DNA from: a virus
Lineage: Duplodnaviria; Caudoviricetes
Strand: one strand, 5' to 3'
DNA: 64,000 bases
IMG/VR virus record: IMGVR_UViG_3300022654_000689
Shown piece after piece: positions 22,935 to 56,254 of this stretch (positions are counted from its first letter, which is position 1; each line of letters opens with the position of its first letter). The position numbers were made by a program, and so were the translations under genes. The notes under the pieces were generated by a model, which was not told the origin of the DNA, ran no database searches, and saw only the letters and a list, made by a program, of their open reading frames with translations.

Positions 22935-23288
22935 ATGTATAAGTTAAAAATTATTGAAAATTGTACGAGCGAATATGGATACCCCATTTCAGTAATATCT
23001 GATTCATTTGATTTTTGTGTCGCAGTTGATAATGAACTTAATTTATTAGGTTTTACTACGTGTCTTACAAAAAAAGATTTATTATGTGAAGGTATTGGTG
23101 AGGATAGCCTTAATGTTTTTATATCAGACGTAGGCGATGAATTTGCTATTAAACCTGGAACCTACAATGAGTTTTTATCAAGTTATTACTATCAATATGA
23201 TGCATATAATGAATGGTGGGAAACTATTGATCATAAAGAATTTACAAAAAAAATTAGTGGATGTAATCCTATAGAGGTGATTAACTAA
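22935..23288 (+). CDS. Hypothetical protein
   Basis: ATG 22935 follows AGGAGG; the track start at 22902 is upstream of the SD. Confidence 0.75.
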   Translation: MYKLKIIENCTSEYGYPISVISDSFDFCVAVDNELNLLGFTTCLTKKDLLCEGIGEDSLNVFISDVGDEFAIKPGTYNEFLSSYYYQYDAYNEWWETIDHKEFTKKISGCNPIEVIN

Positions 23289-23710
23289 TGAGAGGAAAGA
23301 TAAAATCATTAACTAAAATTTCAAAACTAGAATTATTGTCTGATAAAAGATTTGCAAAAGTAGAATTTCTATTTGATGTTATTCAGGTTAATAGCCCTTT
23401 AGATGGAAGACCAACTGTATTTAGTAGTTATGAAAATTTAGTATGGGACTATGTTGATAGAAAATTATTATTTTTCACAACTTTAAGTAGTACAGGTGGA
23501 AAAATTCCAGATAAAGTTCATATAATACGAAGTGATGACTCAATGCCAATTATTGTATATGAAAAATTATCAGACCTTATTAGTAATCCAATCATGTATT
23601 TTGATGGGTATTTAAACAATGAGAAAAGACCGGGTGCGGTTAAATTAATGAAGTATATAAAAGATAATAATATTAATGTGGAAAGAATGATTATCGATTT
23701 AGATATATAG
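23288..23710 (+). CDS. Small paralog-family protein (RY..YD family) with conserved C-terminal tag
   Basis: SDKRFAKVEF..VWDYVDRKLLFF; ends ERMIIDLDI. Confidence 0.75.
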   Translation: MRGKIKSLTKISKLELLSDKRFAKVEFLFDVIQVNSPLDGRPTVFSSYENLVWDYVDRKLLFFTTLSSTGGKIPDKVHIIRSDDSMPIIVYEKLSDLISNPIMYFDGYLNNEKRPGAVKLMKYIKDNNINVERMIIDLDI

Positions 23711-23723
23711 CAGGAGGAAACTA

Positions 23724-24065
23724 ATGATAACAATAGGTAATGCAGAAAATGTAGATTATAACGGAGATACAGAAAGATATATGTTTATACTATTCTTACT
23801 TACAAATGAAAATGGAGAGATATATAATGCTGTATGGAACGGGTGGGATACAATAGAAAAAAGATTATTATATTTTAACAGTTCAATACACCCAAGTAAA
23901 GATGCAATTAATTTAACTGATACTAGAGGTATTACATTTAGTATGGTGTATGATATTATTCCAGATGACAAAGAAGCATATACTGTATCGGCAACTGAAA
24001 TTTATGAAGCATTTTCCAGTGGAGAATTAGATGTAGAACGTATGTTAGTTGAATTTTTATTATAG
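23724..24065 (+). CDS. Small paralog-family protein (RY..YD family) with conserved C-terminal tag
   Basis: DTERYMFILF..GWDTIEKRLLYF; ends ERMLVEFLL. Confidence 0.75.
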   Translation: MITIGNAENVDYNGDTERYMFILFLLTNENGEIYNAVWNGWDTIEKRLLYFNSSIHPSKDAINLTDTRGITFSMVYDIIPDDKEAYTVSATEIYEAFSSGELDVERMLVEFLL

Positions 24066-24075
24066 GAGGTAGTAC

Positions 24076-24597
24076 ATGTTTAATAATTCAGAAGATAAAT
24101 GGGATATTACTTACATCAATATTGCTAACGAATATGCTAAACATAGTAAATGTGCTGCAAAAAAAGTAGCTTGTATATTGGTAAAAGATAATAATATAAT
24201 AGGCGTAGGAGTTAATGGAACCCTTCCAGGTAAGACTAATTGTTGCGATAAATTTTATAAAGACTGGACACTTAATAGTGATGGTAATTGGGTAGCTCAA
24301 TGGCATGAAAAAGTAAATGGTAAATGGGAAATTTGTGATAATAAAGCTCATCATCGCTGGAGCAACCTTAATGAAACACATGCCGAAGTTAATGCTTTAT
24401 CAAAAGCAAATCATAATGGAGTATCGGTTGAAGGGGCAACGGCTTATATTACACTTTCTCCGTGTTACAACTGTGCTAAGATACTTACCACATTTGGTGT
24501 AAAGCGTATAGTATTTACTAATAGATATGACGATGCTGACGAAGTTATAGATTATTTAGTTGAAAATGGTATATGGGTTACTGAATATAAAGAATAA
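24076..24597 (+). CDS. dCMP deaminase (ComEB-like cytidine/deoxycytidylate deaminase)
   Basis: SKCAAKKVACILVKDNNIIGVGVNG; HAEVNA..TLSPCYNC zinc motif. Confidence 0.92.
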   Translation: MFNNSEDKWDITYINIANEYAKHSKCAAKKVACILVKDNNIIGVGVNGTLPGKTNCCDKFYKDWTLNSDGNWVAQWHEKVNGKWEICDNKAHHRWSNLNETHAEVNALSKANHNGVSVEGATAYITLSPCYNCAKILTTFGVKRIVFTNRYDDADEVIDYLVENGIWVTEYKE

Positions 24598-24618
24598 AAT
24601 TAAATTGGAGGTATATTT

Positions 24619-25020
24619 ATGATATATACACATACTGTAGAATTTGAATTAAAATGCAAGTTAGATTTAGTATATTCTTATTGTGACTACTATGCTAACG
24701 ACATAGATGACGTTAAAAACGATCCAGAATGTTATTTAGGTGAATATGACGGTGCTGAAATTCTTATGGACTTGGGAGGTTGGGTATTTGTAAATGGAGA
24801 TCCTTTTAGATGGGTTTCATTATATATAGAAGATAGAAACCAATTTACATTAGAAACAATGTTAGAAAGACTTGATAAACATTTAACATTTGTAGTAATA
24901 ATTTGCGATTACGACGATAGTAGATTATATGACTATTGTAACGTAAATGAAGCCGATGAAGAACTACAAGAATATATAAAGAAAGAGTTTAAAAGAAATT
25001 TAGTAGAACTATTTTTATAG
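24619..25020 (+). CDS. Small hypothetical protein with conserved C-terminal tag
   Basis: SD GGAGGT; ends KRNLVELFL. Confidence 0.75.
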   Translation: MIYTHTVEFELKCKLDLVYSYCDYYANDIDDVKNDPECYLGEYDGAEILMDLGGWVFVNGDPFRWVSLYIEDRNQFTLETMLERLDKHLTFVVIICDYDDSRLYDYCNVNEADEELQEYIKKEFKRNLVELFL

Positions 25021-25046
25021 AATACTCATATGAGTATTCTTTTTTT
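25019..25046 (+). terminator. Rho-independent terminator
   Basis: Palindrome agaatactcatatgagtattct followed by a T-tract. Confidence 0.75.
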
Positions 25047-25058
25047 GTTTATCGCTAA

Positions 25059-25070
25059 AACAATAAGCTA
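25059..25070 (+). promoter_or_regulatory. AACA-N6-TA promoter motif (25097 ORF)
   Basis: aaca-ataagc-ta, just after a terminator. Confidence 0.65.
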
Positions 25071-25096
25071 TTACAGATATATTGGAGGTGTGATAA

Positions 25097-25786
25097 ATGG
25101 CGATGAAAAAAATTATACGTACTGAAGAAAATTCATTACTAAATATTAAATCTATTAAAAATACTACAAATATAACTATTGAAAATGAAGAAGATATGTT
25201 TGAATGTGAAGAATTTTATTTCACTGACGTTTATGATGATAAAGCTGTAAAATCATTTATAAAAGCATGTGAAAAGAATATACGTAGATCAACCTATTAT
25301 TCTCAATATATAGGAACTCTTAAAGAAACATACAATGTTACAAATTGTGCTGTAATGGGTAATATAAGTTGTGATATCGCAGATGTTGAAATGCATCATT
25401 ATCCTTTCTCGTTATATGATATAGTTATGCTAAATATATTGAGATGTAACGATAAAGATATTAAAATGACTACATTTTCAGTAGCTTATGACGTTTTAAA
25501 GGATCATTTTAACAATATCATACCTTTAGTTCCATTAAGCAAAACTGCCCATGAACTAGCTCACGATGGTGAAGTATCAATATCACTAAAACAGATTTTT
25601 GGAAATATTGAGTTATTTATTGAAAAATATAAGGACTACATGTCAGATTCAATGAAAATTAAATTCAATAAAATAGTCGAGTATACCGAAAATGCAGATG
25701 CAATGTATAGTTCTAATAGTGAAACTTTAGCTGTAAAGAAAATGAATGACTTTGGAGACAATTTTTTTACAGACGTATCTTTCTAA
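25097..25786 (+). CDS. Conserved jumbo-phage protein, possible HNH-like fold
   Basis: NCAVMGN..VEMHHYPFSLYDI..VPLSKTAHELAH pattern. The function call is tentative. Confidence 0.55.
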   Translation: MAMKKIIRTEENSLLNIKSIKNTTNITIENEEDMFECEEFYFTDVYDDKAVKSFIKACEKNIRRSTYYSQYIGTLKETYNVTNCAVMGNISCDIADVEMHHYPFSLYDIVMLNILRCNDKDIKMTTFSVAYDVLKDHFNNIIPLVPLSKTAHELAHDGEVSISLKQIFGNIELFIEKYKDYMSDSMKIKFNKIVEYTENADAMYSSNSETLAVKKMNDFGDNFFTDVSF

Positions 25787-25787
25787 A

Positions 25788-25799
25788 AACAAAATATTA
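25788..25799 (+). promoter_or_regulatory. AACA-N6-TA promoter motif (25837 ORF)
   Basis: aaca-aaatat-ta. Confidence 0.6.
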
Positions 25800-25836
25800 G
25801 ATTATAAAATATAAAATTTGAAAGGAGACTTTAATT

Positions 25837-26133
25837 ATGGCAAATATATCATGTTCAGGTGGATTTATACCATCTGTAGTTAACACAGCATTAGATGCAA
25901 GAACTGTAATAGAAAATATAGAGGAAATGGCTAATATAAGTTATCCATTTGTAGGGATGGTAGTATATGTTAAAAACGAAAATAAACTTTATTTAGTAAC
26001 ATCTTTAAAAGCTAAAAATGTTATGGGTATTTCGACACCAGATTCACAAGTCGATGGTTACGAATCTTTGGCTATAGAATTTGCAACGACAGATGAAGTA
26101 AATGCAATGATGGAAGAGTTAGGTTTAAATTAG
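25837..26133 (+). CDS. Small virion/fibre-associated domain protein
   Basis: LDARTV..GMVVYVKNENKLYLV resembles N-terminal modules of phage fibre proteins. Preceded by AACA-N6-TA. Confidence 0.55.
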   Translation: MANISCSGGFIPSVVNTALDARTVIENIEEMANISYPFVGMVVYVKNENKLYLVTSLKAKNVMGISTPDSQVDGYESLAIEFATTDEVNAMMEELGLN

Positions 26134-26151
26134 TAAAGAGGTGGTATATAA

Positions 26152-26886
26152 ATGGCAAATAAAACTGTATCAGAGTTAGATGTAAAAACTAATGCCAGAT
26201 CTGAAGACGTAATGCTTATTGAAGACCAACTAAAAACATATCAAATATCTATATCAAATTTATTCAAAGATTATGTTACTAGAGATGAATTTGAACGTCG
26301 ATTACAAGAACTAATGGATAAAATAAATGATTTATTAAATAGAATCAACGAATTAGAATCTTTATTTGAATCCCTACAAGATAAGATCAAGCAGTTAGAA
26401 GATAAAATTAAAGAATTAGAAGGAAATAAACCACCAACTGAAGATCCTGAAGATCCTGAAGATCCACCAGTTGATGATACGTTTGATTTCGCAAATAACA
26501 TTATATATGGTTATTATGTAACAGCAGGTGAAAACGCAGACCCTACTAATATTACTTTAAATGAATTAAAATTAGAAACTACTAAAATTTTAAAAGCTCC
26601 ATTAGAACCATCTGAGAAACCTATTCTAATGTGTGGAGAACATACTGACGCATGTCCTGAACCTTGTACATACTTCGCTATAGTACCAAAAGCTTCCGAT
26701 TTAGTAGTGTATAATGATGATGGAAACGGTGGTAAAGTTCCATTTGATGATAGTAAAATACCTGGAACAGAATTACATTTTGGATGTAATGCTGTAGAAA
26801 AAGTTTTTAATGACGTTCCAGTATTAGTATGGGGTAAAATAATACAATCTGATAGTCTTAATTACATGCATATTGTTAAAAAGTAA
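26152..26886 (+). CDS. Coiled-coil protein with PED-repeat linker, probable virion component
   Basis: Heptad region at about aa 45-90, then PPTEDPEDPEDPPV, then a beta-rich C-terminal domain. Confidence 0.6.
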   Translation: MANKTVSELDVKTNARSEDVMLIEDQLKTYQISISNLFKDYVTRDEFERRLQELMDKINDLLNRINELESLFESLQDKIKQLEDKIKELEGNKPPTEDPEDPEDPPVDDTFDFANNIIYGYYVTAGENADPTNITLNELKLETTKILKAPLEPSEKPILMCGEHTDACPEPCTYFAIVPKASDLVVYNDDGNGGKVPFDDSKIPGTELHFGCNAVEKVFNDVPVLVWGKIIQSDSLNYMHIVKK

Positions 26887-26912
26887 TGGATCATTTAGAT
26901 CCATTACTTTTT
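26878..26912. terminator. Bidirectional terminator between convergent genes
   Basis: aaaaagtaatggatc-attta-gatccattacttttt. Confidence 0.85.
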
Positions 26913-27762: not shown

Positions 27763-27773
27763 ATTATCACCCC

Positions 27774-29072: not shown

Positions 29073-29090
29073 ATTAACACCCCCGTTTTA

Positions 29091-29102
29091 TATGGGTATG
29101 TT
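29091..29102 (-). promoter_or_regulatory. AACA-N6-TA promoter motif (29072 ORF)
   Basis: Minus strand aaca-taccca-ta, just after a terminator. Confidence 0.65.
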
Positions 29103-29120
29103 CACATCGTCGGAACATAC

Positions 29121-29151
29121 AAAAAAAGAGAAGCTTAATGGCTTCTCTTTT
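29121..29151 (-). terminator. Rho-independent terminator after aminopeptidase
   Basis: aaaaaaagagaagc-ttaatg-gcttctctttt. Confidence 0.8.
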
Positions 29152-29155
29152 CATT

Positions 29156-30421
29156 TTATTCAAATTTACTTTCATAGAATACTTTGTATAATTTATAAGT
29201 TTCATGTAAATCTGTTTTAGATATAACTTCTTGTGGAGAGTGCATCGCTAATACTGGCACTCCTATATCTATAACATGACATCCTTTAATTGCAAAGAAT
29301 GAAGATACAGTACCTCCTCCACCTTCTCCAAGTTTATTAGTTTCTATTGAATACTTAATTTCATTATCAACTGCTAACTTTTTAATCCAATGTTTAAATG
29401 CAAATTCAGTATCATTACCTCTTTTACATCCTAAATAAGGCACTATTCCAGCACCTTTACCACATACAGCCATTGCACTCTTTTCAAAATGGCTTCCAAA
29501 ATTGCTATCATATCCAGCACATACATCAGCTGATATTACACAAGAATTTCTTATAGCAGCTCTAGCAAATACTTCATTATTAAATTCTGATGTTGCAAAT
29601 AGTATAAGTCTAAATATATCATCTATATATTCACTTTCGCAACCTGTAGTTTGCCCACTACCTGTTTCTTCATAAGATGCAAATAAAGCCATTTGTGTTC
29701 TTTCTGTATCTTTACTATCAAAGAAAGCTTTTAATTCAGCAAAAGCGCAACAACTATCATCGTGTCCATAACCTGTAATTAAATCTTTGTCAAATCCAAG
29801 TTCTCTAACTCCGTCAGCAGGTACAAAACTTAAATCTGCAAATTCTAGATCTTTATCTTCTATTCCATACTTTTCTTTAATAAATTCTAAAACATTTTCT
29901 TTTTTATTATTGCCTATTCTTACTATTAAGTCTTTACATTTTAAATCTTGCATTTCATCTCGTCCATTTAAATGTGGTAATAAACTTGTAACTACAAATT
30001 CAAATTCACCTTTAGTGTTTATATCTATAACACCTTTTTCTGTAGTAACTCTACCTACTAATATAAGTGGTCTATCTAACCAACTTTGTGCTATTATTCC
30101 TCCATAAGGTATTGTCTTTAAAAATACTCCGTCATCTTCTTCTATAAATGGGTCTCCTGTTATAACGTCTAATCTAGGGCTATCTAAATGGCTAACTATT
30201 ACATTTGCACCTTCAACTAGGTTTTTACCAACTTTAACCAATGCTATAAATTTATCTCTGAATTTAAATATTAGTCTATCACCTTGTTTTATCTCTGAAT
30301 CTTCAAGTTGTAACTTTTTAAAACCTTTTTCTTTAGCTTGCCCCTCTATATAGTCTACTAATAGTCTTTCATGGAATCCATGGTTTTCTATCATATACTT
30401 GTATTCATCAAAAAACATCAT
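29156..30421 (-). CDS. M18 family (aspartyl/aminopeptidase I-like) metallo-aminopeptidase
   Basis: SHLDSPRLD, YGGIIAQSWLDRPL, GHDD, EETGS, ISADV, DIGVPVLAMHSPQE. Confidence 0.93.
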   Translation of the reverse strand: MMFFDEYKYMIENHGFHERLLVDYIEGQAKEKGFKKLQLEDSEIKQGDRLIFKFRDKFIALVKVGKNLVEGANVIVSHLDSPRLDVITGDPFIEEDDGVFLKTIPYGGIIAQSWLDRPLILVGRVTTEKGVIDINTKGEFEFVVTSLLPHLNGRDEMQDLKCKDLIVRIGNNKKENVLEFIKEKYGIEDKDLEFADLSFVPADGVRELGFDKDLITGYGHDDSCCAFAELKAFFDSKDTERTQMALFASYEETGSGQTTGCESEYIDDIFRLILFATSEFNNEVFARAAIRNSCVISADVCAGYDSNFGSHFEKSAMAVCGKGAGIVPYLGCKRGNDTEFAFKHWIKKLAVDNEIKYSIETNKLGEGGGGTVSSFFAIKGCHVIDIGVPVLAMHSPQEVISKTDLHETYKLYKVFYESKFE

Positions 30422-30459
30422 AAGCAGTACCTCCCAAAATATAAATTTTTATATTATAA

Positions 30460-30768
30460 TTATAATATGCTATCGATTATTAGTTTGTCCATCATGACTC
30501 TTTTTTCTTCTTCTGTAAATTTATCCCACCAATTACTAATTTCTGGATTCTTCAATTCTATTAAAAATATGTTAGTACCTAATTTATTTGTGTAATTTAC
30601 AGTGCAAGTTTCTCTAAAATAAATTCCTCTAAAAGAATATAGCTTATTATTTTCTTTATCATATACTACTACATCTGAAACATCAACATTTTTATTATCA
30701 ATTACATATGTTAACCAAAAGCGTCCATCTTCTGAATCTTGTAACATACGTGCTATCTTTAATTCCAA
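30460..30768 (-). CDS. Small paralog-family protein (RY..YD family) with conserved C-terminal tag
   Basis: EDGRFWLTY..VVYDKENNKLYSF; ends DKLIIDSIL. Confidence 0.75.
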   Translation of the reverse strand: MELKIARMLQDSEDGRFWLTYVIDNKNVDVSDVVVYDKENNKLYSFRGIYFRETCTVNYTNKLGTNIFLIELKNPEISNWWDKFTEEEKRVMMDKLIIDSIL

Positions 30769-30783
30769 AATTTATACCTCCTC

Positions 30784-30813
30784 AAAAAAAATAAATCCCA
30801 TTAAGGGATTTAT
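30784..30813 (-). terminator. Rho-independent terminator after antiporter
   Basis: ataaatccc-attaa-gggatttat with an adjacent A-run (a T-tract on the minus strand). Confidence 0.7.
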
Positions 30814-31739
30814 CTTAAAAATGTAAATATTATATATCCAATATATAATACTACAAAAATTATTCCTTCTTTTCTATTAATAATTTTTTCTTTGTCTTTT
30901 ACAAATATAAAAAGTAATATAGTTATTAGAGTCATAAATATTACGTCATAAAGAGCTACCATACTAAATGTTAATGGATTGATAAAACTTGATAGACCTA
31001 ATATAAATAATATATTAAATATATTACTTCCAACAACGTTACCTACTGCTAACTCTTTTTCACCTTTTCTTATTGCTATTAAGCTAGTTACTAATTCAGG
31101 TAAACTTGTTCCTAGAGCTACTATTGTTAATCCTATAAAGTTCTCGCTTAATCCTAATGATCTAGCTATATCAGACGCTGAAAGTACTACTAAATCTCCA
31201 CCTTTAACTATTAAACCAATACCTATAACGCCTAATATTAATTTTATTATAAACTTTTTAGTTGTTTCTTTTTCTTCAACACTGTCATTATCCATGTTTT
31301 TAGCTTTTAATATATTACTTACTATATAGAATATAAATGCTATTACCAATATTCCTGCTTCAATTCTAGTTATACTTAAATCTATAGCACAAGCAAATAA
31401 TAGTATACATATTGATATTAGTAATTTTATACTGATATAGTTTTCTTTATCGACTGGTAAACTATTAGTCATTATACTGGAAAATCCAAGTATTACTAAT
31501 ATATTGAAGAAATTACTTCCAACTACATTAGCCATACACATTTCATTAACTCCGTGTAATCCAGCTGCTATATTAACACTCGCTTCTGGTAAACTTGTTC
31601 CCATTGCGACTAATGTCAACCCTATTATTACTGTTGGTATATTAAATTTTCTTGCGATAGCAGATGCTCCGTCTACAAAGAAATCAGCACCTTTTATTAA
31701 ACATACAAAACCTAATACTAATAAGAATAATGACATCAT
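30810..31739 (-). CDS. Ca2+/cation (Na+/Ca2+) antiporter, CaCA/YrbG family
   Basis: About 10 TM segments; two alpha repeats, GTSLPE..NVVGSNFFN and GTSLPE..GNVVGSNIFN. Confidence 0.93.
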   Translation of the reverse strand: MMSLFLLVLGFVCLIKGADFFVDGASAIARKFNIPTVIIGLTLVAMGTSLPEASVNIAAGLHGVNEMCMANVVGSNFFNILVILGFSSIMTNSLPVDKENYISIKLLISICILLFACAIDLSITRIEAGILVIAFIFYIVSNILKAKNMDNDSVEEKETTKKFIIKLILGVIGIGLIVKGGDLVVLSASDIARSLGLSENFIGLTIVALGTSLPELVTSLIAIRKGEKELAVGNVVGSNIFNILFILGLSSFINPLTFSMVALYDVIFMTLITILLFIFVKDKEKIINRKEGIIFVVLYIGYIIFTFLR

Positions 31740-31771
31740 AAAATAACCCCTCCCAAAATTTAATTTTATTC

Positions 31772-31805: not shown

Positions 31806-31808
31806 TCT

Positions 31809-32192
31809 TTAATCTATTGCTACTTCACATTGAACTAATAGTTCATTAATAACATTTATTACTTTTTCTTTATTAGTGTTATAGAATTTATGAAGATCAT
31901 CGAATTTTTCAAGTTCATCATTATTATATGATGCTATAAATTCTTTGACATCCTGTTCTGTTAATAGATATAAAGACATTTTACCATAGTAAATTTCAGG
32001 TGGTAATTCCATACTTATTAAATTATTATAGTATTCTATTCCTGTTCGTTCTATCATATAATCATAGATATCGTTTGTTTCTCTATCAAATAATACAACT
32101 CTGTTTTTATCATTATTATCTTTAAATGTTACTTTTACATATCTAGATTCTAAACCTTCTATAAACATTACATCGTTTACTAAATATATCAT
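31809..32192 (-). CDS. Small paralog-family protein (RY..YD family), C-terminal tag diverged
   Basis: LESRYVKVTF..VLFDRETNDIYDY; ends ELLVQCEVAID. Confidence 0.75.
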   Translation of the reverse strand: MIYLVNDVMFIEGLESRYVKVTFKDNNDKNRVVLFDRETNDIYDYMIERTGIEYYNNLISMELPPEIYYGKMSLYLLTEQDVKEFIASYNNDELEKFDDLHKFYNTNKEKVINVINELLVQCEVAID

Positions 32193-32258
32193 ATAAATAC
32201 CTCCTAATTTGATCTAATAATTTTTATTACCATAGAAATAATATATAATTGAAATTTA

Positions 32259-32609
32259 TTATAATACGCCTTCTACTATTCGTTTAGTAATTTCTTTATC
32301 AAATTCTTCATGTTTATCTTTATTAAATTTAATAAAATTTAAAAATCTGCAAAGTACAGGATGGAATTGTCTACTAATGTTTTTATAAACATAAACTTTT
32401 AGTTCTTTACCTGTCGTATCTCTGTATGTGAATGTATCATTGTATCCACTAAGCGGAGCTAGTGAATAAAGATAAAACTGTTTATCAACAGTATCGTATA
32501 CAATCCATAATTGGTCTTCTTCGTAATTAATATCTATCATTATAAAATAATATCTACCTTCTATATCACTGGCTACTGTATCAACAAATCTAATAGAATA
32601 TTGATCCAT
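32259..32609 (-). CDS. Small paralog-family protein (RY..YD family) with conserved C-terminal tag
   Basis: IEGRYYFIMI..IVYDTVDKQFYLY; ends TKRIVEGVL. Confidence 0.78.
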   Translation of the reverse strand: MDQYSIRFVDTVASDIEGRYYFIMIDINYEEDQLWIVYDTVDKQFYLYSLAPLSGYNDTFTYRDTTGKELKVYVYKNISRQFHPVLCRFLNFIKFNKDKHEEFDKEITKRIVEGVL

Positions 32610-32621: not shown

Positions 32622-32999
32622 CTATATCATAGATTCTATTACTTCTTTTTTACAAGATTCTATTAATGTATTATCATTGACGATATATTCTTCTAAATAC
32701 ATAAACTTATCATCAACTAATTTTCCATATTCTGGTGTTTTGTAAATATATACATTAGCCATTACAGTAGTACAATCATCTAAATATAATGAATAACGAT
32801 CGTTGTAAGACAATCCTTTAACATTATCAGTAATATATTCATAGCCGTAAATTTTTTCGTCAATACTATCGAATATCACCCACCACGCATCTTCAGTATC
32901 AAATTCATCTTCTCTTATTCCTCTAAGTAGAATATTGTAATATCTTTCCGTTGATTCTGACAAATCAAGATCAATGACTTCTATAAATTTATAATACAT
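32622..32999 (-). CDS. Small paralog-family protein (RY..YD family) with conserved C-terminal tag
   Basis: STERYYNILL..VIFDSIDEKIYGY; ends KKEVIESMI. Confidence 0.78.
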   Translation of the reverse strand: MYYKFIEVIDLDLSESTERYYNILLRGIREDEFDTEDAWWVIFDSIDEKIYGYEYITDNVKGLSYNDRYSLYLDDCTTVMANVYIYKTPEYGKLVDDKFMYLEEYIVNDNTLIESCKKEVIESMI

Positions 33000-33017: not shown

Positions 33018-33416
33018 CTATAATAAATTATCAACTATCATTCTTTCTATATCTTTTGTAACTTCATCTAATTTTTCATAATTAAATACATATTCCATTA
33101 TAACTGGAGACATATATCCATTCATTTCATCTAACGAATATAATACACCATTTATACCAGCAATAATTTTACTTGAATTATAATTTTCTTTATTAATTAA
33201 ACTGTAATTATAAAATTTTTTATCATCATTGTCCCATATTAATCTTATTACATATATATTAAAAATAATATCGTTTAAATCTGAAGACACTTCTAATTCA
33301 ACTAAATAATATCTTTCGTTATCATTAATTGGGCTGACCAATTTAACTGAAAGTTCATTCCATATATCCGTTTGAATTTTAAATGTTGTAAATGGAGTTA
33401 TATACTTCTTATTCAT
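33018..33416 (-). CDS. Small paralog-family protein (RY..YD family) with conserved C-terminal tag
   Basis: DNERYYLVEL..LIWDNDDKKFYNY; ends ERMIVDNLL. Confidence 0.78.
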   Translation of the reverse strand: MNKKYITPFTTFKIQTDIWNELSVKLVSPINDNERYYLVELEVSSDLNDIIFNIYVIRLIWDNDDKKFYNYSLINKENYNSSKIIAGINGVLYSLDEMNGYMSPVIMEYVFNYEKLDEVTKDIERMIVDNLL

Positions 33417-33420
33417 AATA

Positions 33421-33777
33421 TCACTCCCTATTAATTAACTCATTAAATTTTTCATCTACAGTTCGTTTATGCATTTCATAGAATTTTTTAAAATCTGTAG
33501 TGTACCTACTTCCATTGTTTACATTAATTAGAGTTATAAAATATTCATCATTGTTAGATAAATATTCAATATCATTATTAGAACGTAATCCGAAAAATGA
33601 CATATTAGGTTTTCTTAAAAAATCGAATATTGCTTTTTGCTCTTTATCATAAACTATATTAAATTCTGTATTGAACGTTTCTTTACCAATTCTTTCCTTA
33701 GCTATAATACTAACTAAATAATATCTTTCGTTTTTATCACTTAGTTCTCTATTAACATTTTTTAATTCAAATTCCAT
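33421..33777 (-). CDS. Small paralog-family protein (RY..YD family), C-terminal tag absent
   Basis: KNERYYLVSI..IVYDKEQKAIFDF; ends NELINRE, with the TGA stop inside the SD of the next gene. Confidence 0.78.
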   Translation of the reverse strand: MEFELKNVNRELSDKNERYYLVSIIAKERIGKETFNTEFNIVYDKEQKAIFDFLRKPNMSFFGLRSNNDIEYLSNNDEYFITLINVNNGSRYTTDFKKFYEMHKRTVDEKFNELINRE

Positions 33778-33791: not shown

Positions 33792-34163
33792 TTATAATAA
33801 ATTATCTATATAAGATTTTTCAATAAGCTTTTCAGTATACTCTATATTATCCGTAAGTTCTTTCATAACAGCATCAGTATCTATAATTACACCAATACAG
33901 CCTCTAACAACTTCCTTATCAACTTTAGTTGCATAATATGTTTTGTTATCGTTAGCTTCATATATAGCTACCACTTCACTTCCAGATATCTTTCTTTTCA
34001 TTAATACTACATGCTCAAATTTTTTTAATATAGTATCATATAAATATACAGGCCCGTATAATGTATCACGTATAGCAATTCGTATAAATATATATCTATC
34101 GTCTTTGCTGCATCTTTCAGTTTTAACTTCAATTTTTTCCATAATATCAAATATTGATTTCAT
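33792..34163 (-). CDS. Small paralog-family protein (RY..YD family) with conserved C-terminal tag
   Basis: KDDRYIFIRI..YLYDTILKKFEHV; ends EKSYIDNLL. ATG 34163 follows GGAGGAG; the track start at 34178 is within the SD. Confidence 0.78.
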   Translation of the reverse strand: MKSIFDIMEKIEVKTERCSKDDRYIFIRIAIRDTLYGPVYLYDTILKKFEHVVLMKRKISGSEVVAIYEANDNKTYYATKVDKEVVRGCIGVIIDTDAVMKELTDNIEYTEKLIEKSYIDNLL

Positions 34164-34186
34164 AATATACTCCTCCAAATTTAATT

Positions 34187-34537
34187 TTATATCATACTAT
34201 CAACTACAATAGATTTTACTTTTTTAAAAAACTCTGTATTGTTTTTCATTTCGTTGTCTAGAAATTTTCCATGTTCAGAAAAAGTTATATCATCCATTAT
34301 CAATATAGGGGTTGGTTCCTTACTATAAAAACCTCTTATGAAAAAATCTGTATCTACGTCTATATCATCAGGATCCATTGTATAATTAACTAAACATTCG
34401 TTTAAAGTATCATATAAAAACCAATCAGTAATATACTCATCACCAACCATAATATCGAATTCTAAACTTACAAATCTACCACAAATAGTATTAAGATAAT
34501 CAACATTTTTTACCCCAATAATTTTAATATCACTCAA
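34187..34537 (-). CDS. Small paralog-family protein (RY..YD family) with conserved C-terminal tag
   Basis: ICGRFVSLEF..FLYDTLNECLVNY; ends KSIVVDSMI. Confidence 0.75.
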   Translation of the reverse strand: MSDIKIIGVKNVDYLNTICGRFVSLEFDIMVGDEYITDWFLYDTLNECLVNYTMDPDDIDVDTDFFIRGFYSKEPTPILIMDDITFSEHGKFLDNEMKNNTEFFKKVKSIVVDSMI

Positions 34538-34549: not shown

Positions 34550-34882
34550 TTATAATTGGATTTCTACTAAATGTCTTTCAAGTTCTTTAATAAGTGTTTC
34601 TTCCCCTACGGAATTCATATAATTAAAGAAAATTCTATCATTTTTATATTCACTAGGTGAAGCTTTATATACCGAATGTCCTTCTAAATCTATAAATAAT
34701 TTTTTAGACTCATCATCAGAATGGTATTCATGTGGAATAAGTTCCTTACTTAAACTATCATATAAAACAGTCCAATCACTATCAATTGTGAAATTATCAC
34801 ACATATAATATTGTATTAAGTAATATCTATCATCAGGATCAATTAAATGTATCTTCACAAATTCAACTTTTAATATTAACAT
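34550..34882 (-). CDS. Small paralog-family protein (RY..YD family) with conserved C-terminal tag
   Basis: PDDRYYLIQY..VLYDSLSKELIPH; ends ERHLVEIQL. Confidence 0.78.
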   Translation of the reverse strand: MLILKVEFVKIHLIDPDDRYYLIQYYMCDNFTIDSDWTVLYDSLSKELIPHEYHSDDESKKLFIDLEGHSVYKASPSEYKNDRIFFNYMNSVGEETLIKELERHLVEIQL

Positions 34883-34900: not shown

Positions 34901-34926
34901 AAGGTAAGACTATACGGTCTTACCTT
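34901..34926 (-). terminator. Hairpin after RNAP subunit gene (terminator or processing stem)
   Basis: aaggtaagac-tatacg-gtcttacctt. Confidence 0.6.
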
Positions 34927-35476
34927 AATGATTTAGTATATGAATTCCTATAATTTGGTCTTTATCTAATGAAAGTTTCTTGTTAAATTTACCATCATTG
35001 TTACTTATGATTAAGTTTACAGGAGATAATATCTCAAATGTTTTCTTCATATCTTCATCAAATATAGGTACTACATTCAGAACGTCGCCATCAAAGTCAC
35101 CTGCTAATGACACAAGTAAATTATTACTTATACTTAATGTTAAATCACTATAGTCTTTCTTAATCTCTCCTATTCTTAAGAAGAATATTGACCCGATCGC
35201 TAAGGTTGGATTGCGGTTTAAAAGTATTCTTAAACCAGTTTTAGTCTTATTCTTTAATAACATTAAATACTTATACATCTCTTCATCGAATTTTAATGAT
35301 TTTTGTCTCCATATCTTTTCAGCTTCTATATAGTTTATATTCTTACTAGCACTTATCATACTTACTAATTGATACTTATAAAGCTCACAAGCGCCCACAT
35401 ATGGTATATCAACTTCATCTATTGGTGCGTTTATCTTTGGTGTTATAACGAATCTAGCTGAGAAGTTTATCTTGGA
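34925..35476 (-). CDS. Exon 2 of phage multisubunit RNA polymerase beta'-like (N-terminal half) subunit, catalytic DxDGD
   Basis: SKINFSARFVITP (cf. GKRVDYSGRSVI), LLNRNPTL (cf. NRAPTLH) and LAGDFDGDVLN (cf. NADFDGD). Confidence 0.93.
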   Translation of the reverse strand, partial: SKINFSARFVITPKINAPIDEVDIPYVGACELYKYQLVSMISASKNINYIEAEKIWRQKSLKFDEEMYKYLMLLKNKTKTGLRILLNRNPTLAIGSIFFLRIGEIKKDYSDLTLSISNNLLVSLAGDFDGDVLNVVPIFDEDMKKTFEILSPVNLIISNNDGKFNKKLSLDKDQIIGIHILNH

Positions 35477-35564
35477 CATATATGTTAACTGTATATTTCT
35501 ATACAGATCAGACTATATCTTCACCATCTCTGGTGCTCCATGTTTCCACTCAATTAAGTGTACT

Positions 35565-36557
35565 CTACTCCCTTATTAACGGTTTCGATAGTCGTTGAAC
35601 TTCTATAAATTCTTCAATTAAATTTAATAACTCTTTTTTCTGTTTATAAGAAATACGTAATAATGGTATATTATGGTCTTTACAATAATTATTCTTAATT
35701 GAATCTCTTTGTTGACATTCTTTTAATTTTTCTTCCGGATTTCTATTAAGAATTTTATCATGATATTCACCATCATATTCAATTATACAATTTAAATCTG
35801 TAATATAAAAATCGAAACGAAGAGGGTAACCTGTTTTAGGATTTATTAAGCCATCAAAAGTTTTTTCAATTTCGAAATTTATGTTTTCAGATTCTAAATA
35901 CATTTGTATAAATTTTGTGGAATTTGATTGAATGTTTGAGGCACAGTATGGACATCTTCTGCCATCTAAAAATTTACCAGGACTAACTTTATATCTATTG
36001 CCACATTTTTTATGAGTTACAGAAATCTTACCATCACGCCCCTTATTAAACTTTTCTTCAAAATTATATTCATCATAATCAATACATTCTTTTTTAATTA
36101 GATTCATATAATAACTATGAGGTTTTCGTTTTTTAGAACCTATTCGTTCACCTCGGTGTTTAGGGCATCTTTGTCCTGATAGAAAATTATTAACTGTCAT
36201 TTCAAAAATATGTCCACACGTTATATGTTTAAATTTAACTTTGTCAGCAGTTGTTTTATAGTGTAACCAGTCATGTATTAAATATTCTGATTTACCTTCA
36301 ACATCAATACGTTTAATTATATCATTTTTACTTAATTTTTGATTACTAACATGTTCATTTTTTGAACATTCAGGGCATCCTGTAGCTTTTTTAGCAGTTA
36401 CATGGCATGCAGTAGTTTTCCACTTACAACCACATTTTAAACATTCAAATTCCATACGATTTTTAGCCAATGTATAAATATCATGAGTTATTATTGTTCC
36501 TTTTGATACGCGTTTTAAATCTTCTATAAACTCATTATGAGTTTTTCTTTTAGTCAT
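35565..36557 (-). CDS. Intron-encoded homing endonuclease (zinc-ribbon repeats plus Vsr/DUF559-like, EDxHD-type PD-(D/E)xK domain)
   Basis: Three C/H-x2-C...CPxC/H repeats; C-terminal LRFDFYITDLNCIIEYDGEYHD..RDSIKNNYC..IPLLRI. Confidence 0.85.
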   Translation of the reverse strand: MTKRKTHNEFIEDLKRVSKGTIITHDIYTLAKNRMEFECLKCGCKWKTTACHVTAKKATGCPECSKNEHVSNQKLSKNDIIKRIDVEGKSEYLIHDWLHYKTTADKVKFKHITCGHIFEMTVNNFLSGQRCPKHRGERIGSKKRKPHSYYMNLIKKECIDYDEYNFEEKFNKGRDGKISVTHKKCGNRYKVSPGKFLDGRRCPYCASNIQSNSTKFIQMYLESENINFEIEKTFDGLINPKTGYPLRFDFYITDLNCIIEYDGEYHDKILNRNPEEKLKECQQRDSIKNNYCKDHNIPLLRISYKQKKELLNLIEEFIEVQRLSKPLIRE

Positions 36558-36580
36558 AACAAAACCTCCACAAAAATTGA

Positions 36581-36592
36581 TATAGTTTTGTT
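36581..36592 (-). promoter_or_regulatory. AACA-N6-TA promoter motif inside the intron, upstream of the homing endonuclease
   Basis: Minus strand aaca-aaacta-ta, 24 nt before the ATG. Confidence 0.6.
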
Positions 36593-36679
36593 ATAATTTT
36601 TGAAGAATTTATAGTAGCTGCTGATTGTCTCAATGAGAGGTTCCAGCAATTAATGGAGTTTTAATTGAGCTACCAATTA

Positions 36680-37375
36680 ACCCAAATTATTCTTTCTTAA
36701 CCATCCACGTTTACCCATAAGATAATCTTTTATTATTGTCATAAATATCTTATTAGCAAACATTTGTATATTGTATAATAACGGCATTATTATATATTCA
36801 GCTGTGATGCCATTTATCTCTTTAAGATATCTAAGTATCATATTGTATTCATTATTAATTTCATCAAACGTTATTGTATTCGAAATTAGAGTACAAGGTC
36901 TTTGTTTGGCATTTAATACAGGAAACTTGTTTATCCATACGTACTTCATATTAGCCATTATAAATTTATATTCATCTGGATACTTTTTCTGATTTCCCCA
37001 CTCATTGACTATTCTTACAAAATTATCTTTAAATTCTCTTAATCCTATATTATCATCTTTTTCGTCTTCTTCATTTTCTTCTTCAATTTCTCCTTCTCTA
37101 CTTATAAGTTTATCATATGATATTATCTTATTAAGTTTTTTAGTTCCTAATATTCGCTCTAAATGTTTAAACATAACTGGATTAATTATATAGTGTTCTT
37201 CTAAATCAATCCATCCTAATTCTTCATTTTCATCATCAGCCATATCTCCAAATATCTTTTCACTGAATACTCCATCTTCTGTAAACGTTTTATCTTTATT
37301 AAGTGGACTAAAATTAGTTATCTTATTCTCTTCTTTAAAGTCATTATTAAAATCTGCTAATTTTATCTTTTTCAT
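36680..37375 (-). CDS. Exon 1 of phage RNA polymerase beta'-like (N-terminal half) subunit (spliced product about 415 aa)
   Basis: DGVFSEKIFG (cf. DGLFCxRIFG), GWIDL, FPVLNAKQRP, GKRGWLRKNNLG (cf. GKQGRFRQNLLG). Confidence 0.9.
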
Positions 37376-37458
37376 TACAACTCACTCCTTTAATTTTAAT
37401 TTAATGCTAATATATAATATATATTTTATTTATCTAATATTTTTATTAATTTGAGGTT

Positions 37459-49177: not shown

Positions 49178-49207
49178 AATTTAAAGGAAAGGAGATGTAA
49201 TAAAACT

Positions 49208-51246: not shown

Positions 51247-51270
51247 CTATAAAGTTATTCTTTTATTTTA
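51231..51270. terminator. Bidirectional terminator between convergent genes
   Basis: taaaataaaagaataact-ataa-agttattcttttatttta. Confidence 0.8.
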
Positions 51271-51275
51271 AATAA

Positions 51276-52232: not shown

Positions 52233-52258
52233 CGTATTACCTCCGTTTTCTTAATTCA

Positions 52259-52270
52259 TATGGTTTTGTT
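52259..52270 (-). promoter_or_regulatory. AACA-N6-TA promoter motif (52232 ORF)
   Basis: Minus strand aaca-aaacca-ta. Confidence 0.65.
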
Positions 52271-52328
52271 TTGATTATATTTACATATTATAAAAATGAG
52301 AAACAAAATGTATAATGGAGGTATGAAT

Positions 52329-53381
52329 ATGTATAATTATAAAATTAGCGTGACTGCCGATTGGCATTGGGGTTGTAAAGATGATAATAAATTATTTTAT
52401 GAAGAGTTTCCGTTATATATGCAACATTTAAGAGAAGATAAACCTGATGCTATAATAATATGTGGAGATTGGTATCATAGAATACTTAAACTTACAGAAT
52501 CTCCAAGCAAGTACTCGTTCAATGCAATGTATCAATTAAATGAGTATTCAATAAATCATAAAGTTCCATTAATTATATTAAAAGGAACCAAAACACATGA
52601 TAATAATCAGCTTAACAATCTAGCACGTATTAATAATCCATATTTTAAAATTATTAATACTGTAACAGAAGATATTCTTTTACCAGGGCTTAAAGTTTTG
52701 TATGTTCCAGAAGAATATATTGAAGATGGATATTATGATAAGTACTTTAATGTAGAAGAACATTATTATGACATAATATTTGGGCACGGAATGTTTGATT
52801 TTGCAGGATTTAATAAAGACTCTAAAGAAAGACAACTTAAAAATGCACCAACATTCAAATCTAATCTATTTGATAGAATATCTAGAGTTACATTATTTGG
52901 ACACGTTCATAATAGACAACAGAAAGGTAATGTGTATTATATAGGAAGCTATAGCGCTAATAGCTTTGATGAGATAGGAGATAGAGGTTGGATATTATTA
53001 AACATTACTGATGACGAACATGAAGTAGAATATAAGAATAATGAAAAAGCTCCTAAGTATATAACCGTTAATATTGATAAGATTGAAGGAGAAACTGATA
53101 TAGAAAAAATGTCAGTTATAAATCAGATAAGAGAGGATTATGACTATATAAGAATAATAAGTAATTCTAAAGACGCAGAAGGACTTAAAGCTTTAACAGC
53201 TTCAACTAATATTAAAGTTCAAGTAAAACAACAAACGGAAACCAAACAAGTACCAGAAGAATATAGATTTGTATTGGACGATACAATAGATTTAGATGAA
53301 AAGATAAAACGTTATGCTAAGTTGCAATACGGTATAGATTTAGATAAAGAATTCATACAAACTAACATTAAGGAGGAATAA
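52329..53381 (+). CDS. sbcD: SbcD/Mre11-like metallophosphoesterase nuclease
   Basis: Motifs ADWH, GDWYH, KGTKTHD, GHG and GHVH. ATG 52329 follows GGAGGT (track start 52296). Confidence 0.85.
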   Translation: MYNYKISVTADWHWGCKDDNKLFYEEFPLYMQHLREDKPDAIIICGDWYHRILKLTESPSKYSFNAMYQLNEYSINHKVPLIILKGTKTHDNNQLNNLARINNPYFKIINTVTEDILLPGLKVLYVPEEYIEDGYYDKYFNVEEHYYDIIFGHGMFDFAGFNKDSKERQLKNAPTFKSNLFDRISRVTLFGHVHNRQQKGNVYYIGSYSANSFDEIGDRGWILLNITDDEHEVEYKNNEKAPKYITVNIDKIEGETDIEKMSVINQIREDYDYIRIISNSKDAEGLKALTASTNIKVQVKQQTETKQVPEEYRFVLDDTIDLDEKIKRYAKLQYGIDLDKEFIQTNIKEE

Positions 53382-53383
53382 AC

Positions 53384-53719
53384 TTGCCTACCGTCAAGGA
53401 GATAAAAGGAGTAAAAAGAATACATTTTAATAATAATCTCACTATAGAATTTGACATAATAGCTTTAGAAAAAGGGGAAGAAGTAGAATCAGTATTATAT
53501 GTTTTATATTATGGATTATTCCATGTGGACAGAATGGAAATTCTTATACAAAATCTACTCCGACGAATTGATAATGATTGGTTGGATGACATGATGTTAT
53601 TTGTCGGAAGTAGACCTAATAGAACATACGGAATAGGTACTGAATATCCATTATTTAATAGTATTATAAAATCCATCAAAGATAATAGAGATAGATTTAT
53701 AATTGAAGCTAGTTTATAA
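53384..53719 (+). CDS. Small hypothetical protein with conserved C-terminal tag
   Basis: TTG start after AAGGAGG; ends DRFIIEASL. Confidence 0.72.
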   Translation: MPTVKEIKGVKRIHFNNNLTIEFDIIALEKGEEVESVLYVLYYGLFHVDRMEILIQNLLRRIDNDWLDDMMLFVGSRPNRTYGIGTEYPLFNSIIKSIKDNRDRFIIEASL

Positions 53720-53749
53720 TTGCATATTATATTTTTGTAGTAAAAATTT

Positions 53750-53761
53750 AACATATAGTTA
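53750..53761 (+). promoter_or_regulatory. AACA-N6-TA promoter motif (dnaB)
   Basis: aaca-tatagt-ta. Confidence 0.6.
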
Positions 53762-53783
53762 ACTATGAGGAGAGTGATATTAA

Positions 53784-55454
53784 ATGGCATTGAAAAAGAG
53801 AGGAGAAAACAAGTATAAGTTTGATTTAAATTCTAATCATTTAGATCTGATGCTTGCATATTGCTATAGTGGCAATGAGAATATCACAATGAGAGGAATA
53901 ATGAATTTAAAGAATTTCGTAGATATGGTTGATGAAAAACAATATGAAAATGACTATGGAATGAATTTAAGAATAATTATGCTTAAATTTACGTTAGATG
54001 CAGTAGTATCTAATGGAATAAGAGAGTATGAATTAATAAGAGGCCATGTAGAGAATAATTTAACAGATCAAAACATGAAATCTGACATGGATATTATACT
54101 TGAAAGTATAGAGGAATTTGGTGAGTTATCTAATAGTGACATACAATTTATAAATGATTATGTATCAGATAGACTAACTAATTTATATCTTTATAAGTAT
54201 GAGGCTCCATTAAATGAATGCTTAGAAAGACTTAAAACAGGTAATACTAGTATTAAAGAACTTAATGAAAGATTTGATACGTTAATAACTGAATTGTATA
54301 CCAATATTAAACACGCAAGAAGTACTAAGAGCAATATGGGAAGTAGCGATTTCTCATTTAGAAACGAAAGATCATTCACTGAAGTTACAAACAGAACTAT
54401 CAAACAATTAAACAAACCTTCTAACTTTATTAAAACTGGTATTAAAGAATTGAATAACATGTTAGGTGGAGGATGGGAAAGTGGTAGATGCTACGTGCTC
54501 CTTGGTCTTCCTAAACGTTTTAAAAGTGGTTCACTTCTTAATGCAGCTATATGGGGTGCTAAGTATAATAAAGACGTTGTAACCAAAGATCCAACTAAAA
54601 AACCTGCAGTTGTTTATATAAGTATGGAAAACAGTTCTGAAGAAACATTAGAACGTATATTTCACTATGCAAGTGGAGAAAGCATTAAGAAGTATACAAC
54701 GAGACAGGCACAAGATCTAATACTAGAAGAACTTACTATTGAAGGCAGTGAAACAGATTTAGTTATATGGTATAGACCTAATAGGAGTATAAGTACAATG
54801 GATCTTGATGCATTATTAGATGATTTAGCTATAGAAGGATTAGAGTGTATAATGCTAGTACAAGACTATATAGCTCGTATTAAACCTTCTGAATATACTG
54901 GTGATACTCGTATAGATTATGGGACAGTTGTTAACGATTTCACTGTCTGCGCTAAAAGTAGGAATATACCTGTATTAACGGCAGGACAGTTGAATAGGGA
55001 AGCTTTAAGAAAATTAGAAAATGGAATAGACAATAATAATTCCGACTTAGCTAAGAAGATAGGTTCTGCAGAAGTTGGTGAATCACAATTAATTATAAAC
55101 AACTGTGATATGGCAATAGTAGTTAATAAAGAAGCAAGTGCTACACTTAATAAAAATTTCTTAACATTTAAATGTGTTGCTTGTAGATATAAAGATGTAG
55201 AGAAACCATATTTTGCACATCCATTTGTAGATGGTAATGGTATGAGATTAGAAGAAGATTTAAGAATGACTAAGTCTATGTCAACAGCAACAATAAGTGA
55301 AAAACTTAATAAGTTTGATCCTAATATAAACCAAAGTGTAAATCCACGTTTTGGTGGAAAATCACAAAGTGTAAATGCGCAAATGAGTAAACGTAATTTA
55401 GGACAAGATGTAGATGCATTAAATCCAAATGATGATGACTTTGCGAATATATAA
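53784..55454 (+). CDS. dnaB: DnaB-like replicative helicase (SF4)
   Basis: IKTGIKELNNMLGGG, atypical Walker A LGLPKRFKS, YISMEN, LVQDYI, TAGQLNR. Confidence 0.88.
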   Translation: MALKKRGENKYKFDLNSNHLDLMLAYCYSGNENITMRGIMNLKNFVDMVDEKQYENDYGMNLRIIMLKFTLDAVVSNGIREYELIRGHVENNLTDQNMKSDMDIILESIEEFGELSNSDIQFINDYVSDRLTNLYLYKYEAPLNECLERLKTGNTSIKELNERFDTLITELYTNIKHARSTKSNMGSSDFSFRNERSFTEVTNRTIKQLNKPSNFIKTGIKELNNMLGGGWESGRCYVLLGLPKRFKSGSLLNAAIWGAKYNKDVVTKDPTKKPAVVYISMENSSEETLERIFHYASGESIKKYTTRQAQDLILEELTIEGSETDLVIWYRPNRSISTMDLDALLDDLAIEGLECIMLVQDYIARIKPSEYTGDTRIDYGTVVNDFTVCAKSRNIPVLTAGQLNREALRKLENGIDNNNSDLAKKIGSAEVGESQLIINNCDMAIVVNKEASATLNKNFLTFKCVACRYKDVEKPYFAHPFVDGNGMRLEEDLRMTKSMSTATISEKLNKFDPNINQSVNPRFGGKSQSVNAQMSKRNLGQDVDALNPNDDDFANI

Positions 55455-55483
55455 GAGAATAGTTTAATAAAACTATTCTCTTA
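55452..55483 (+). terminator. Hairpin after dnaB
   Basis: taagagaatagttt-aata-aaactattctctta. Confidence 0.65.
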
Positions 55484-55511
55484 ATTAAATTTAAATTAGA
55501 GGAGGCAATTT

Positions 55512-55898
55512 ATGAGAATTAAACTTGGAGTTTGTAAGTGTGCAACTGCTAAAGTGCGTGAACATAATACACCAATTATAATAAACATTAGTGACAATAT
55601 CATAATTAAAGATGACAAAGAATATAGAGGAGATGTAACTTTAATATGTTCTACTATAGATACTCATGTTATAAAAAATCCCGTTAGTTCAGGTTCAGTA
55701 TTTACTAATTTTGCAGCATTTAGAATTATATTTGGAGAGGAAACACACACGTTATCAAATGTGATATTAACAGATAACACAGCTTATGGAAGTAAAGAAC
55801 AATTAAAAACATTAGAAGAGGATAAACTTATAATTGAAGATATAGTACGATTTCTAGAAACCTATAAAGAAAGAATTAATATAGATATTTTAATTTAA
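55512..55898 (+). CDS. Small hypothetical protein with conserved C-terminal tag (paralog of 55916..56254)
   Basis: MRIKLG..FAAFRI; ends ERINIDILI. Confidence 0.75.
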   Translation: MRIKLGVCKCATAKVREHNTPIIINISDNIIIKDDKEYRGDVTLICSTIDTHVIKNPVSSGSVFTNFAAFRIIFGEETHTLSNVILTDNTAYGSKEQLKTLEEDKLIIEDIVRFLETYKERINIDILI

Positions 55899-55915
55899 AT
55901 TAGAGGAGGTAATTT

Positions 55916-56254
55916 ATGAAAATTAAATTTGGAACATATGCCTATGCTGAAAAAGCTAAAGGAGATAATTTTAAATTATATATAGACCATTGTGATGTAT
56001 GGATTAAAGATGAGGAGATACATGATGAACAAGTATCTATATTATGTATGCCATCGTGTTTTGTAGACGATGATTCTTCTTTTGCGGAATTCAGAATATA
56101 TGTCATGCATTACTGTATTCCTTTATTAGTTTTTCATACAGGTGGTATTGTAAGTAATAGAAAGCTATGGAATGAAACTAGAGAATTAACAAAACAAATT
56201 ACAGAATTTATAGAAAAACATAAAGAAAAAATTGATATAGATGTACAAATTTAA
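55916..56254 (+). CDS. Small hypothetical protein with conserved C-terminal tag (paralog of 55512..55898)
   Basis: MKIKFG..FAEFRI; ends EKIDIDVQI. Confidence 0.75.
   Translation: MKIKFGTYAYAEKAKGDNFKLYIDHCDVWIKDEEIHDEQVSILCMPSCFVDDDSSFAEFRIYVMHYCIPLLVFHTGGIVSNRKLWNETRELTKQITEFIEKHKEKIDIDVQI

Follow-up and report, generated by a model that had tools for sequence, protein, structure and literature searches.

A shared C-terminal tail that may mark a hypervariable protein superfamily in an uncultured 330-kb phage

Thirteen small proteins encoded in the IMG/VR virus record IMGVR_UViG_3300022654_000689 (Duplodnaviria; Caudoviricetes; a stretch of 64,000 nucleotides, referred to here as the window) end in the same core pattern, [IV][DE]xx[IL], with its last residue at the free C-terminus. 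This tail had originally been predicted, from the sequence alone, to be a docking or targeting signal on proteins from apparently unrelated groups. We consider it somewhat better than even (a probability of about 0.55) that it instead marks a single phage-specific, tandemly amplified and hypervariable superfamily, in which the C-terminal helix is the structural keystone. Nine of the thirteen proteins belong to one homologous family, named RY..YD after its conserved motifs, and in most of the carriers the tail looks like a part of the fold.

The tail and the RY..YD family

Translation of the open reading frames (ORFs, named here by their first position in the window) reproduced all 13 C-terminal nonamers as they had been quoted: ERMIIDLDI (23288), ERMLVEFLL (23724), KRNLVELFL (24619), DKLIIDSIL (30460), TKRIVEGVL (32259), KKEVIESMI (32622), ERMIVDNLL (33018), EKSYIDNLL (33792), KSIVVDSMI (34187), ERHLVEIQL (34550), DRFIIEASL (53384), ERINIDILI (55512) and EKIDIDVQI (55916). 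Counting back from the last residue (-1), I/V at -5, D/E at -4 and I/L at -1 are each found in 13/13, R/K at -8 in 12/13 (34187 has serine) and E/D at -9 in 9/13. The residue counts of the original prediction therefore hold, as does the placing of the tailed genes at four loci and on both strands.

The tail is strongly enriched at C-termini. In a greedy, non-overlapping set of window ORFs of at least 50 residues (n=59), the core motif is terminal in 13 and in none of the remaining 46, while about 0.2 chance matches are expected among 59 proteins, or about 0.03 when R/K is required at -8. Inside proteins the motif occurs at 0.0039 per position, or at 0.0007 if R/K at -8 is included. If the whole RY..YD family is counted as one event, finding at least three more independent groups among 48 proteins has a p of about 1e-3 for the core and 1e-5 with R/K. 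The codons differ between copies (ATC, GTT, GTA, ATA or ATT at -5; GAT or GAA at -4; ATA, TTA or ATT at -1), and the stop codons are followed by ordinary GGAGG ribosome-binding sites. As the codons of the last nine residues vary in this way, selection acts at the level of the peptide, with no common DNA motif.

About 80 kb were surveyed for carriers, and 25 tails of this phage lineage were compared. The C-terminal register is fixed in 25/25, and position -1 is leucine in 14 and isoleucine in 11. Conservation reaches beyond the last nine residues, with lysine at -12 in 17/25 tails and a hydrophobic residue at -10, whereas position -3 is unconserved (S9, I3, L2, N2, A2, V2). The spacing of the conserved positions follows a helical periodicity. 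All tailed proteins are 100-142 residues long, with net charges from +2 to -18, and most are acidic. None of them has an enzymatic or structural domain, which agrees with the earlier claim that no enzyme or structural gene of the window carries the tail, and across the 80 kb the tail is confined to proteins of at most 142 residues that are neither enzymes nor structural proteins. A profile of the last 40 residues, searched against 5.8 billion clusters with a restriction to longer proteins, matched nothing but small proteins of this lineage.

To group the proteins by their bodies, a hidden Markov model (HMM) was built by iteration on the small proteins, each without its last 12 residues. The tail-trimmed model joins 11 window ORFs, nine of the 13 tailed ones and the tail-less paralogs 31809 and 33421 (Table 1), and the full-length family model scores the members at E-values of 1e-17 to 1e-33. 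Several sequence groups do bear the tail, but calling them apparently unrelated was an overstatement, because nine of the thirteen proteins form this one homologous family. The remaining ones retain some family-like features, are similar to it in size and build, and lie in the same tandem arrays. In an alignment of 20 sequences, the invariant residues are R19 at the start of strand 2 (RY) and D39 at the end of strand 3 (YD). The class of residue in the tail is conserved at 95% for -1, -5 and -6, 90% for -10, 85% for -4 and 80% for -8, and apart from these tail positions and the invariant R and D, the family has no conserved columns.

Neither the family nor the other tailed proteins matched any entry in Pfam or PHROGs, and full-text literature searches returned no description of the motif or of the family. 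An exhaustive profile search of 1.8 billion representatives yielded about 15 real family clusters of 102-152 residues. The distant homologs, which come from other phages, carry both motifs, R-Y and Y-D, along with the tail in unchanged register; between 33018 and one of them (P0028), the body is 39% identical and the tail 7/9. Four long profile matches (P0021, P0023, P0027 and P0029) were rejected as low-complexity artefacts that match many unrelated Pfam families.

An AlphaFold2 (AF2) model of 32259 has a mean predicted local distance difference test score (pLDDT) of 90.9 and a predicted template modelling score (pTM) of 0.84, and is compact, with six strands (residues 4-75) and two helices (84-95 and 97-115). 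The predicted fold of the family is a six-stranded antiparallel sheet with two helices after it. The tail (residues 108-116) forms the last two to three turns of the final helix in this model, inside the compact domain and without a linker; residues 101-110 have the highest pLDDT of the protein (96) and the final block has 86. A flexible appendage of the SspB type, as had been proposed, does not fit 32259, where the tail sits within helix 97-115. For nine of the thirteen proteins, the situation comes close to a single fold with the tail as a structural element, as the helix is predicted to lie in a compact and confident domain. Searches with the family model by Foldseek (PDB and BFVD), VIA-align wide and the ESM Atlas shape search gave nothing above background. 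Small sheet-plus-helix inhibitors, such as polymorphic-toxin immunity proteins, CdiI and AcrF10, can serve as a comparison class for the fold.

In such a fold, the hydrophobic residues at -1, -2, -5, -6 and -10 would form the face that packs on the sheet, and K/R at -8 could pair with D/E at -4 (i to i+4) along the rim of the helix. Together these features would make the helix the folding keystone, which must stop with the last buried residue but leaves the sheet and its loops free to vary. The tailed proteins outside the family, which are 24619, 53384, the 22902 type, three ORFs of a second locus of this phage and perhaps 55512/55916, would then be far-diverged or chimeric offshoots of the same arrays. 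The proteins may act as fast-turnover binders early in infection, in host takeover or counter-defence, with the variable body binding the target.

Tailed proteins beyond the family and in the sister phage

The tailed genes belong to an uncultured phage of about 330 kb, which also turned up on metagenome contigs as long as 330,661 bp. Locus L001, from a JGI contig, is identical to the window across 20,351 bases. The window, with a G+C content of about 27%, codes for very large virion proteins and for fragments of a split multisubunit RNA polymerase, and the phage is a distant relative of the Bacillus jumbo phages AR9 and PBS1, with one virion protein 26% identical to theirs. A scan of viral contigs found no relative. 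Two further loci (L002 and L004) come from a sister phage, whose proteins are 40-95% identical to those of the window phage, and one (L006) is a second locus of the window's own phage.

The tails persist in the sister phage as the bodies diverge. The sister ortholog of 23724 is 42% identical in the body, and its three core tail positions carry V-to-I, E-to-D and L-to-I exchanges, all within class. The tail-less ends are also kept, that of 31809 in strains and in the sister phage and that of 33421 in the sister phage. The number of family copies varies between the two phages, with fewer in the sister array, and the accessory gene 53384 is missing from the sister phage, where 90 bp separate its flanking genes.

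A fourteenth window member is hidden by a frameshift. At 23237-23262, the window and L001 have a run of eight A where L002 has seven, and the extra A shifts the frame of 22902-23288 before the tail; with seven, ORF 22902 ends in the tail motif. A form of the 22902 type with an intact tail (P0049) is present in other samples. The difference could be a real mutation or a homopolymer assembly error.

In L006, 11 of the 30 ORFs are tailed. Eight tandem family genes, all with tails, are followed by an RNB-type exoribonuclease and then by three more tailed ORFs. The latter are related to each other and barely to the family, although one of them is colinear with the family HMM over the region between the YD strand and the C-terminus (E 8e-4). 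The exoribonuclease (L006 8774-10696), which lies between the two groups of tailed genes, is RNase II/R-like and has OB and cold-shock domains.

At least five sequence groups bear the tail. A weak residual signal of the family is seen in 24619, which with its sister ortholog has an R-W/R-Y strand and a YD-like strand that are possible equivalents of those with the invariant R and D; hhalign gave no significant match between 24619 and the family. A tblastn match of 24619 to an internal helix in hypothetical proteins of Staphylococcus Silviavirus and Kayvirus (E 0.05-0.4) was judged to be chance. In the 22902 type, the helix that precedes the tail is similar to the one in the 30460/P0030 subfamily (empirical p about 0.001), and the same test was not significant for the other outliers. 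Neither 53384 nor the 22902 type had a tblastn match among 50,697 phage records. The 55512/55916 pair are the least secure members, with tails that have a polar -6 and a strand-like alternation of hydrophobic and polar residues, and for them the probability of a single chance match is roughly 0.03-0.17. An ESM Atlas feature search for 55512 returned nothing above chance level, and the AF2 model of 55916, from a six-row alignment, is unusable (pLDDT 35).

What the tail could be for

Several points weigh against a single superfamily held together by a structural helix. After trimming of the tail, 24619, 53384, 55512/55916 and the 22902 type match the family no better than control proteins do, and neither the invariant R nor the invariant D of the family is found in 53384, 55512/55916 or the 22902 type, although all of these keep the tail. 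A tail without these residues is unexpected under plain divergence and suggests an extra constraint on it. In 32259 the burial of the tail is deduced from confidence values and helical periodicity. In addition, the 31809 and 33421 subfamilies persist with a degenerate tail, showing that the fold does not strictly depend on the motif, and the near-universal, exact stop after the last I/L is tighter than usual for a purely structural helix. As the tail outlasts the invariant residues, keeps an exact register and has been dispensed with by two subfamilies, it may do more than hold the fold.

One possible, though unlikely, explanation is that the tail is a portable docking or address tag, in which a 12-residue C-terminal helix and its free carboxylate plug varied small proteins into one receptor, such as an unfoldase or protease, the interior of the capsid, RNA polymerase or an export device. 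Each protein would then consist of a variable body and a constant adaptor tail. The fixed register of all 25 tails would be expected of such a tag, as would its presence on at least five sequence groups, its survival where body similarity has gone, invariant R and D included, and the within-class exchanges at all core positions between orthologs just 42% identical. A true ClpP gene (22183-22857) also lies directly upstream of three tailed genes, and phage ClpP is thought to act against the host (PMC7824862). However, the tail of the family continues the helix of a compact domain in the model, with no linker, its hydrophobic arc of about 180 degrees suits packing within the molecule, and it never occurs on an enzyme, a structural protein or a larger protein. 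The receptors named here are candidates, and all carriers could be one diverged superfamily. Prediction of a complex between three copies of the phage ClpP and 32259 gave a score of 0.00, which counts neither for nor against binding. The wider claim, a genome-wide address tag by which at least 25 small proteins of at least five unrelated body types, perhaps a tenth of the genes, dock on one receptor, is more doubtful still.

Known terminal signals resemble the tail in part. As in protease adaptors of the SspB type, a conserved peptide is found at the extreme C-terminus of differing bodies, and a Clp-family gene is nearby. The ClpX-binding peptide of SspB sits on a long disordered linker, whereas the tail here is part of a helix in a compact model, and there is no sequence similarity. 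The cargo-loading peptides of encapsulins and the capsid-targeting sequence of T4 are likewise short terminal peptides common to otherwise different proteins, which they guide to a single receptor, the interior of an HK97-fold shell. Cargo-loading peptides have an extended form and come after a linker, and the sequence of T4 is found at the N-terminus and is removed by cleavage. The tailed genes here lie in non-structural modules. A multigene family in which the target-binding body varies and a C-terminal module stays constant is also seen in the poxvirus ankyrin/PRANC proteins and in the cellular F-box and SOCS-box proteins. The PRANC family has expanded in a large virus, and PRANC/F-box is a helical domain of 40-50 residues with Skp1 as its receptor, whereas the conserved part here is about 12 residues and shows no homology. 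Two other signals were rejected. A ligand of PDZ domains or tail-specific proteases does not fit, with -1 conserved but -3 not and a periodicity that is helical rather than extended, and neither does an ssrA-like degron, as none of the tails terminates in A-A and the model shows a helical end.

Another, rather improbable possibility is that the amphipathic C-terminal helix joins tailed paralogs into homo- or hetero-oligomers, including mixed complexes. The amphipathic pattern is conserved across paralogs, many of which are co-expressed from the same operon-like arrays, and small phage inhibitors are often dimers. The monomer model is, however, already compact and confident with the helix in place, and no heptad-type pattern extends beyond about three turns.

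Chance, composition or a signal in the DNA (a codon bias towards AT, or an element at the ends of genes such as a promoter, terminator or recombination site) is very improbable and is excluded for the whole set, since, although the low G+C content makes I, K, N, D, E and L common and the chance probability for 55512/55916 alone is not negligible, the observed number far exceeds that expected, the codons vary, the sequences downstream are ordinary ribosome-binding sites, and the motif is conserved in distant homologs.

Jumbo phages are known for lineage-specific expansions of small proteins, such as the approximately 35 zinc-ribbon copies in Bacillus phage G (PMC7824862). As in those expansions, one large genome holds dozens of paralogs in tandem arrays, which diverge quickly and are confined to one lineage. 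The tailed family differs in having no Pfam, PHROG or structural relative, and in that its most persistent part is a C-terminally fixed helix, found also on bodies that are no longer recognisably related.

RY..YD is a previously undescribed family for which no sequence or structural relatives were found. It accounts for a large fraction of the small genes in a 330-kb phage, and its copy number shifts between close relatives, a pattern typical of genes at the phage-host interface. If the helix is purely structural, it would be a clean case of a small fold diverging far around a fixed keystone, and a warning against taking shared termini for tags. If it is read by a partner, there would be a modular targeting system in giant phages, with the tail peptide as a handle on the receptor, and a true address tag would be the bacterial-virus counterpart of the F-box/PRANC adaptors or of the encapsulin cargo peptides.

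Positions of the tailed genes and their surroundings

Table 1. Members of the RY..YD family and other tailed ORFs in the window
ORF	Position	Strand	Feature	Evidence
22902	22902..23288	+	22902-type small ORF, group G5, tail lost by frameshift	Run of A compared with sister locus L002 (see text)
23288	23288..23710	+	RY..YD member with tail	Tail-trimmed HMM, E 1.8e-3 in iteration 1 and 4.5e-23 once included; full-length HMM, E 1e-20
23724	23724..24065	+	RY..YD member with tail	Tail-trimmed and full-length HMM
24619	24619..25020	+	Tailed ORF, group G2	Best non-family match of the family HMM, E 0.008-0.015
30460	30460..30768	-	RY..YD member with tail	Tail-trimmed and full-length HMM
31809	31809..32192	-	RY..YD member, degenerate tail and 3-residue extension	Tail-trimmed HMM
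32259	32259..32609	-	RY..YD member with tail	AF2 model (values in text)
32622	32622..32999	-	RY..YD member with tail	Tail-trimmed and full-length HMM
33018	33018..33416	-	RY..YD member with tail	Tail-trimmed and full-length HMM
33421	33421..33777	-	RY..YD member without tail motif	Tail-trimmed and full-length HMM
33792	33792..34178	-	RY..YD member with tail	Tail-trimmed and full-length HMM
34187	34187..34537	-	RY..YD member with tail, S for R/K at -8	Tail-trimmed and full-length HMM
34550	34550..34882	-	RY..YD member with tail	Tail-trimmed and full-length HMM
53384	53384..53719	+	Tailed ORF, group G3, accessory gene	No body similarity to the family
55512	55512..55898	+	Tailed ORF, group G4, paralog of 55916	29% identical to 55916; no family similarity
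55916	55916..56254	+	Tailed ORF, group G4	AF2 model (value in text)

The tailed genes lie among non-structural genes for replication, transcription and nucleotide metabolism, outside the head module, and the tailed groups adjoin family members in shared co-directional clusters. The neighbours of the cluster at 22.9-25.0 kb are ClpP, dCMP deaminase and RusA. A perfect hairpin followed by a T-run (25021-25050), directly 3' of 24619, is likely to be an intrinsic terminator that closes this cluster. Fragments of the RNA-polymerase beta' subunit, a Na/Ca exchanger and an M18 aminopeptidase are found around 30.4-34.9 kb, and a metallophosphoesterase, a DnaB-like helicase and a UvrD-like helicase around 53.4-56.3 kb.

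The early-promoter consensus of AR9 consists of a 13-mer, six bases and then G (PMC5312081). A perfect match at 37407-37426 (- strand) is intergenic and lies upstream of the beta' gene (start 37375) that heads the array at 34.9-32.3 kb, and a match with one mismatch at 32231-32250 (- strand) is intergenic and upstream of 31809 (start 32192). As such matches are not enriched in the AT-rich window (two with at most one mismatch, against 1.2 expected), early expression is a positional lead only.

The beta' gene itself is split in the window (34925-37375, - strand). Its ORFs 36677-37375 and 34925-35479 correspond to one contiguous ORF in the sister phage (L002 6977-8708), and between them lies an ORF of 330 residues (35565-36557) with matches to a treble-clef zinc finger, CapR and DUF2726, which looks like an inserted endonuclease cassette (an intron or similar). 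The sister beta' gene is interrupted differently, by about 600 nt immediately ahead of the DFDGD segment. The UvrD/PIF1-like helicase (56276-57521) is also divided in the window, into two overlapping ORFs of 151 and 266 residues, and its sister gene (L004 5737-8296) is more broken and contains an endonuclease-like ORF of 334 residues (DUF723/DUF4379).

Besides ClpP, the phage carries three unusual auxiliary genes: an M18/M42 aminopeptidase (29156-30421), which is absent from the sister phage, a membrane protein of the Na/Ca-exchanger family (30810-31739) and a 4-alpha-glucanotransferase (GH77, E 1.7e-169; 57534-59003). In the virion module, the proteins encoded at 327-1118 and 6003-11927 end in a similar pentapeptide, I-L-Q/E-G-I, which may be a common C-terminal module of fibre or other virion proteins.

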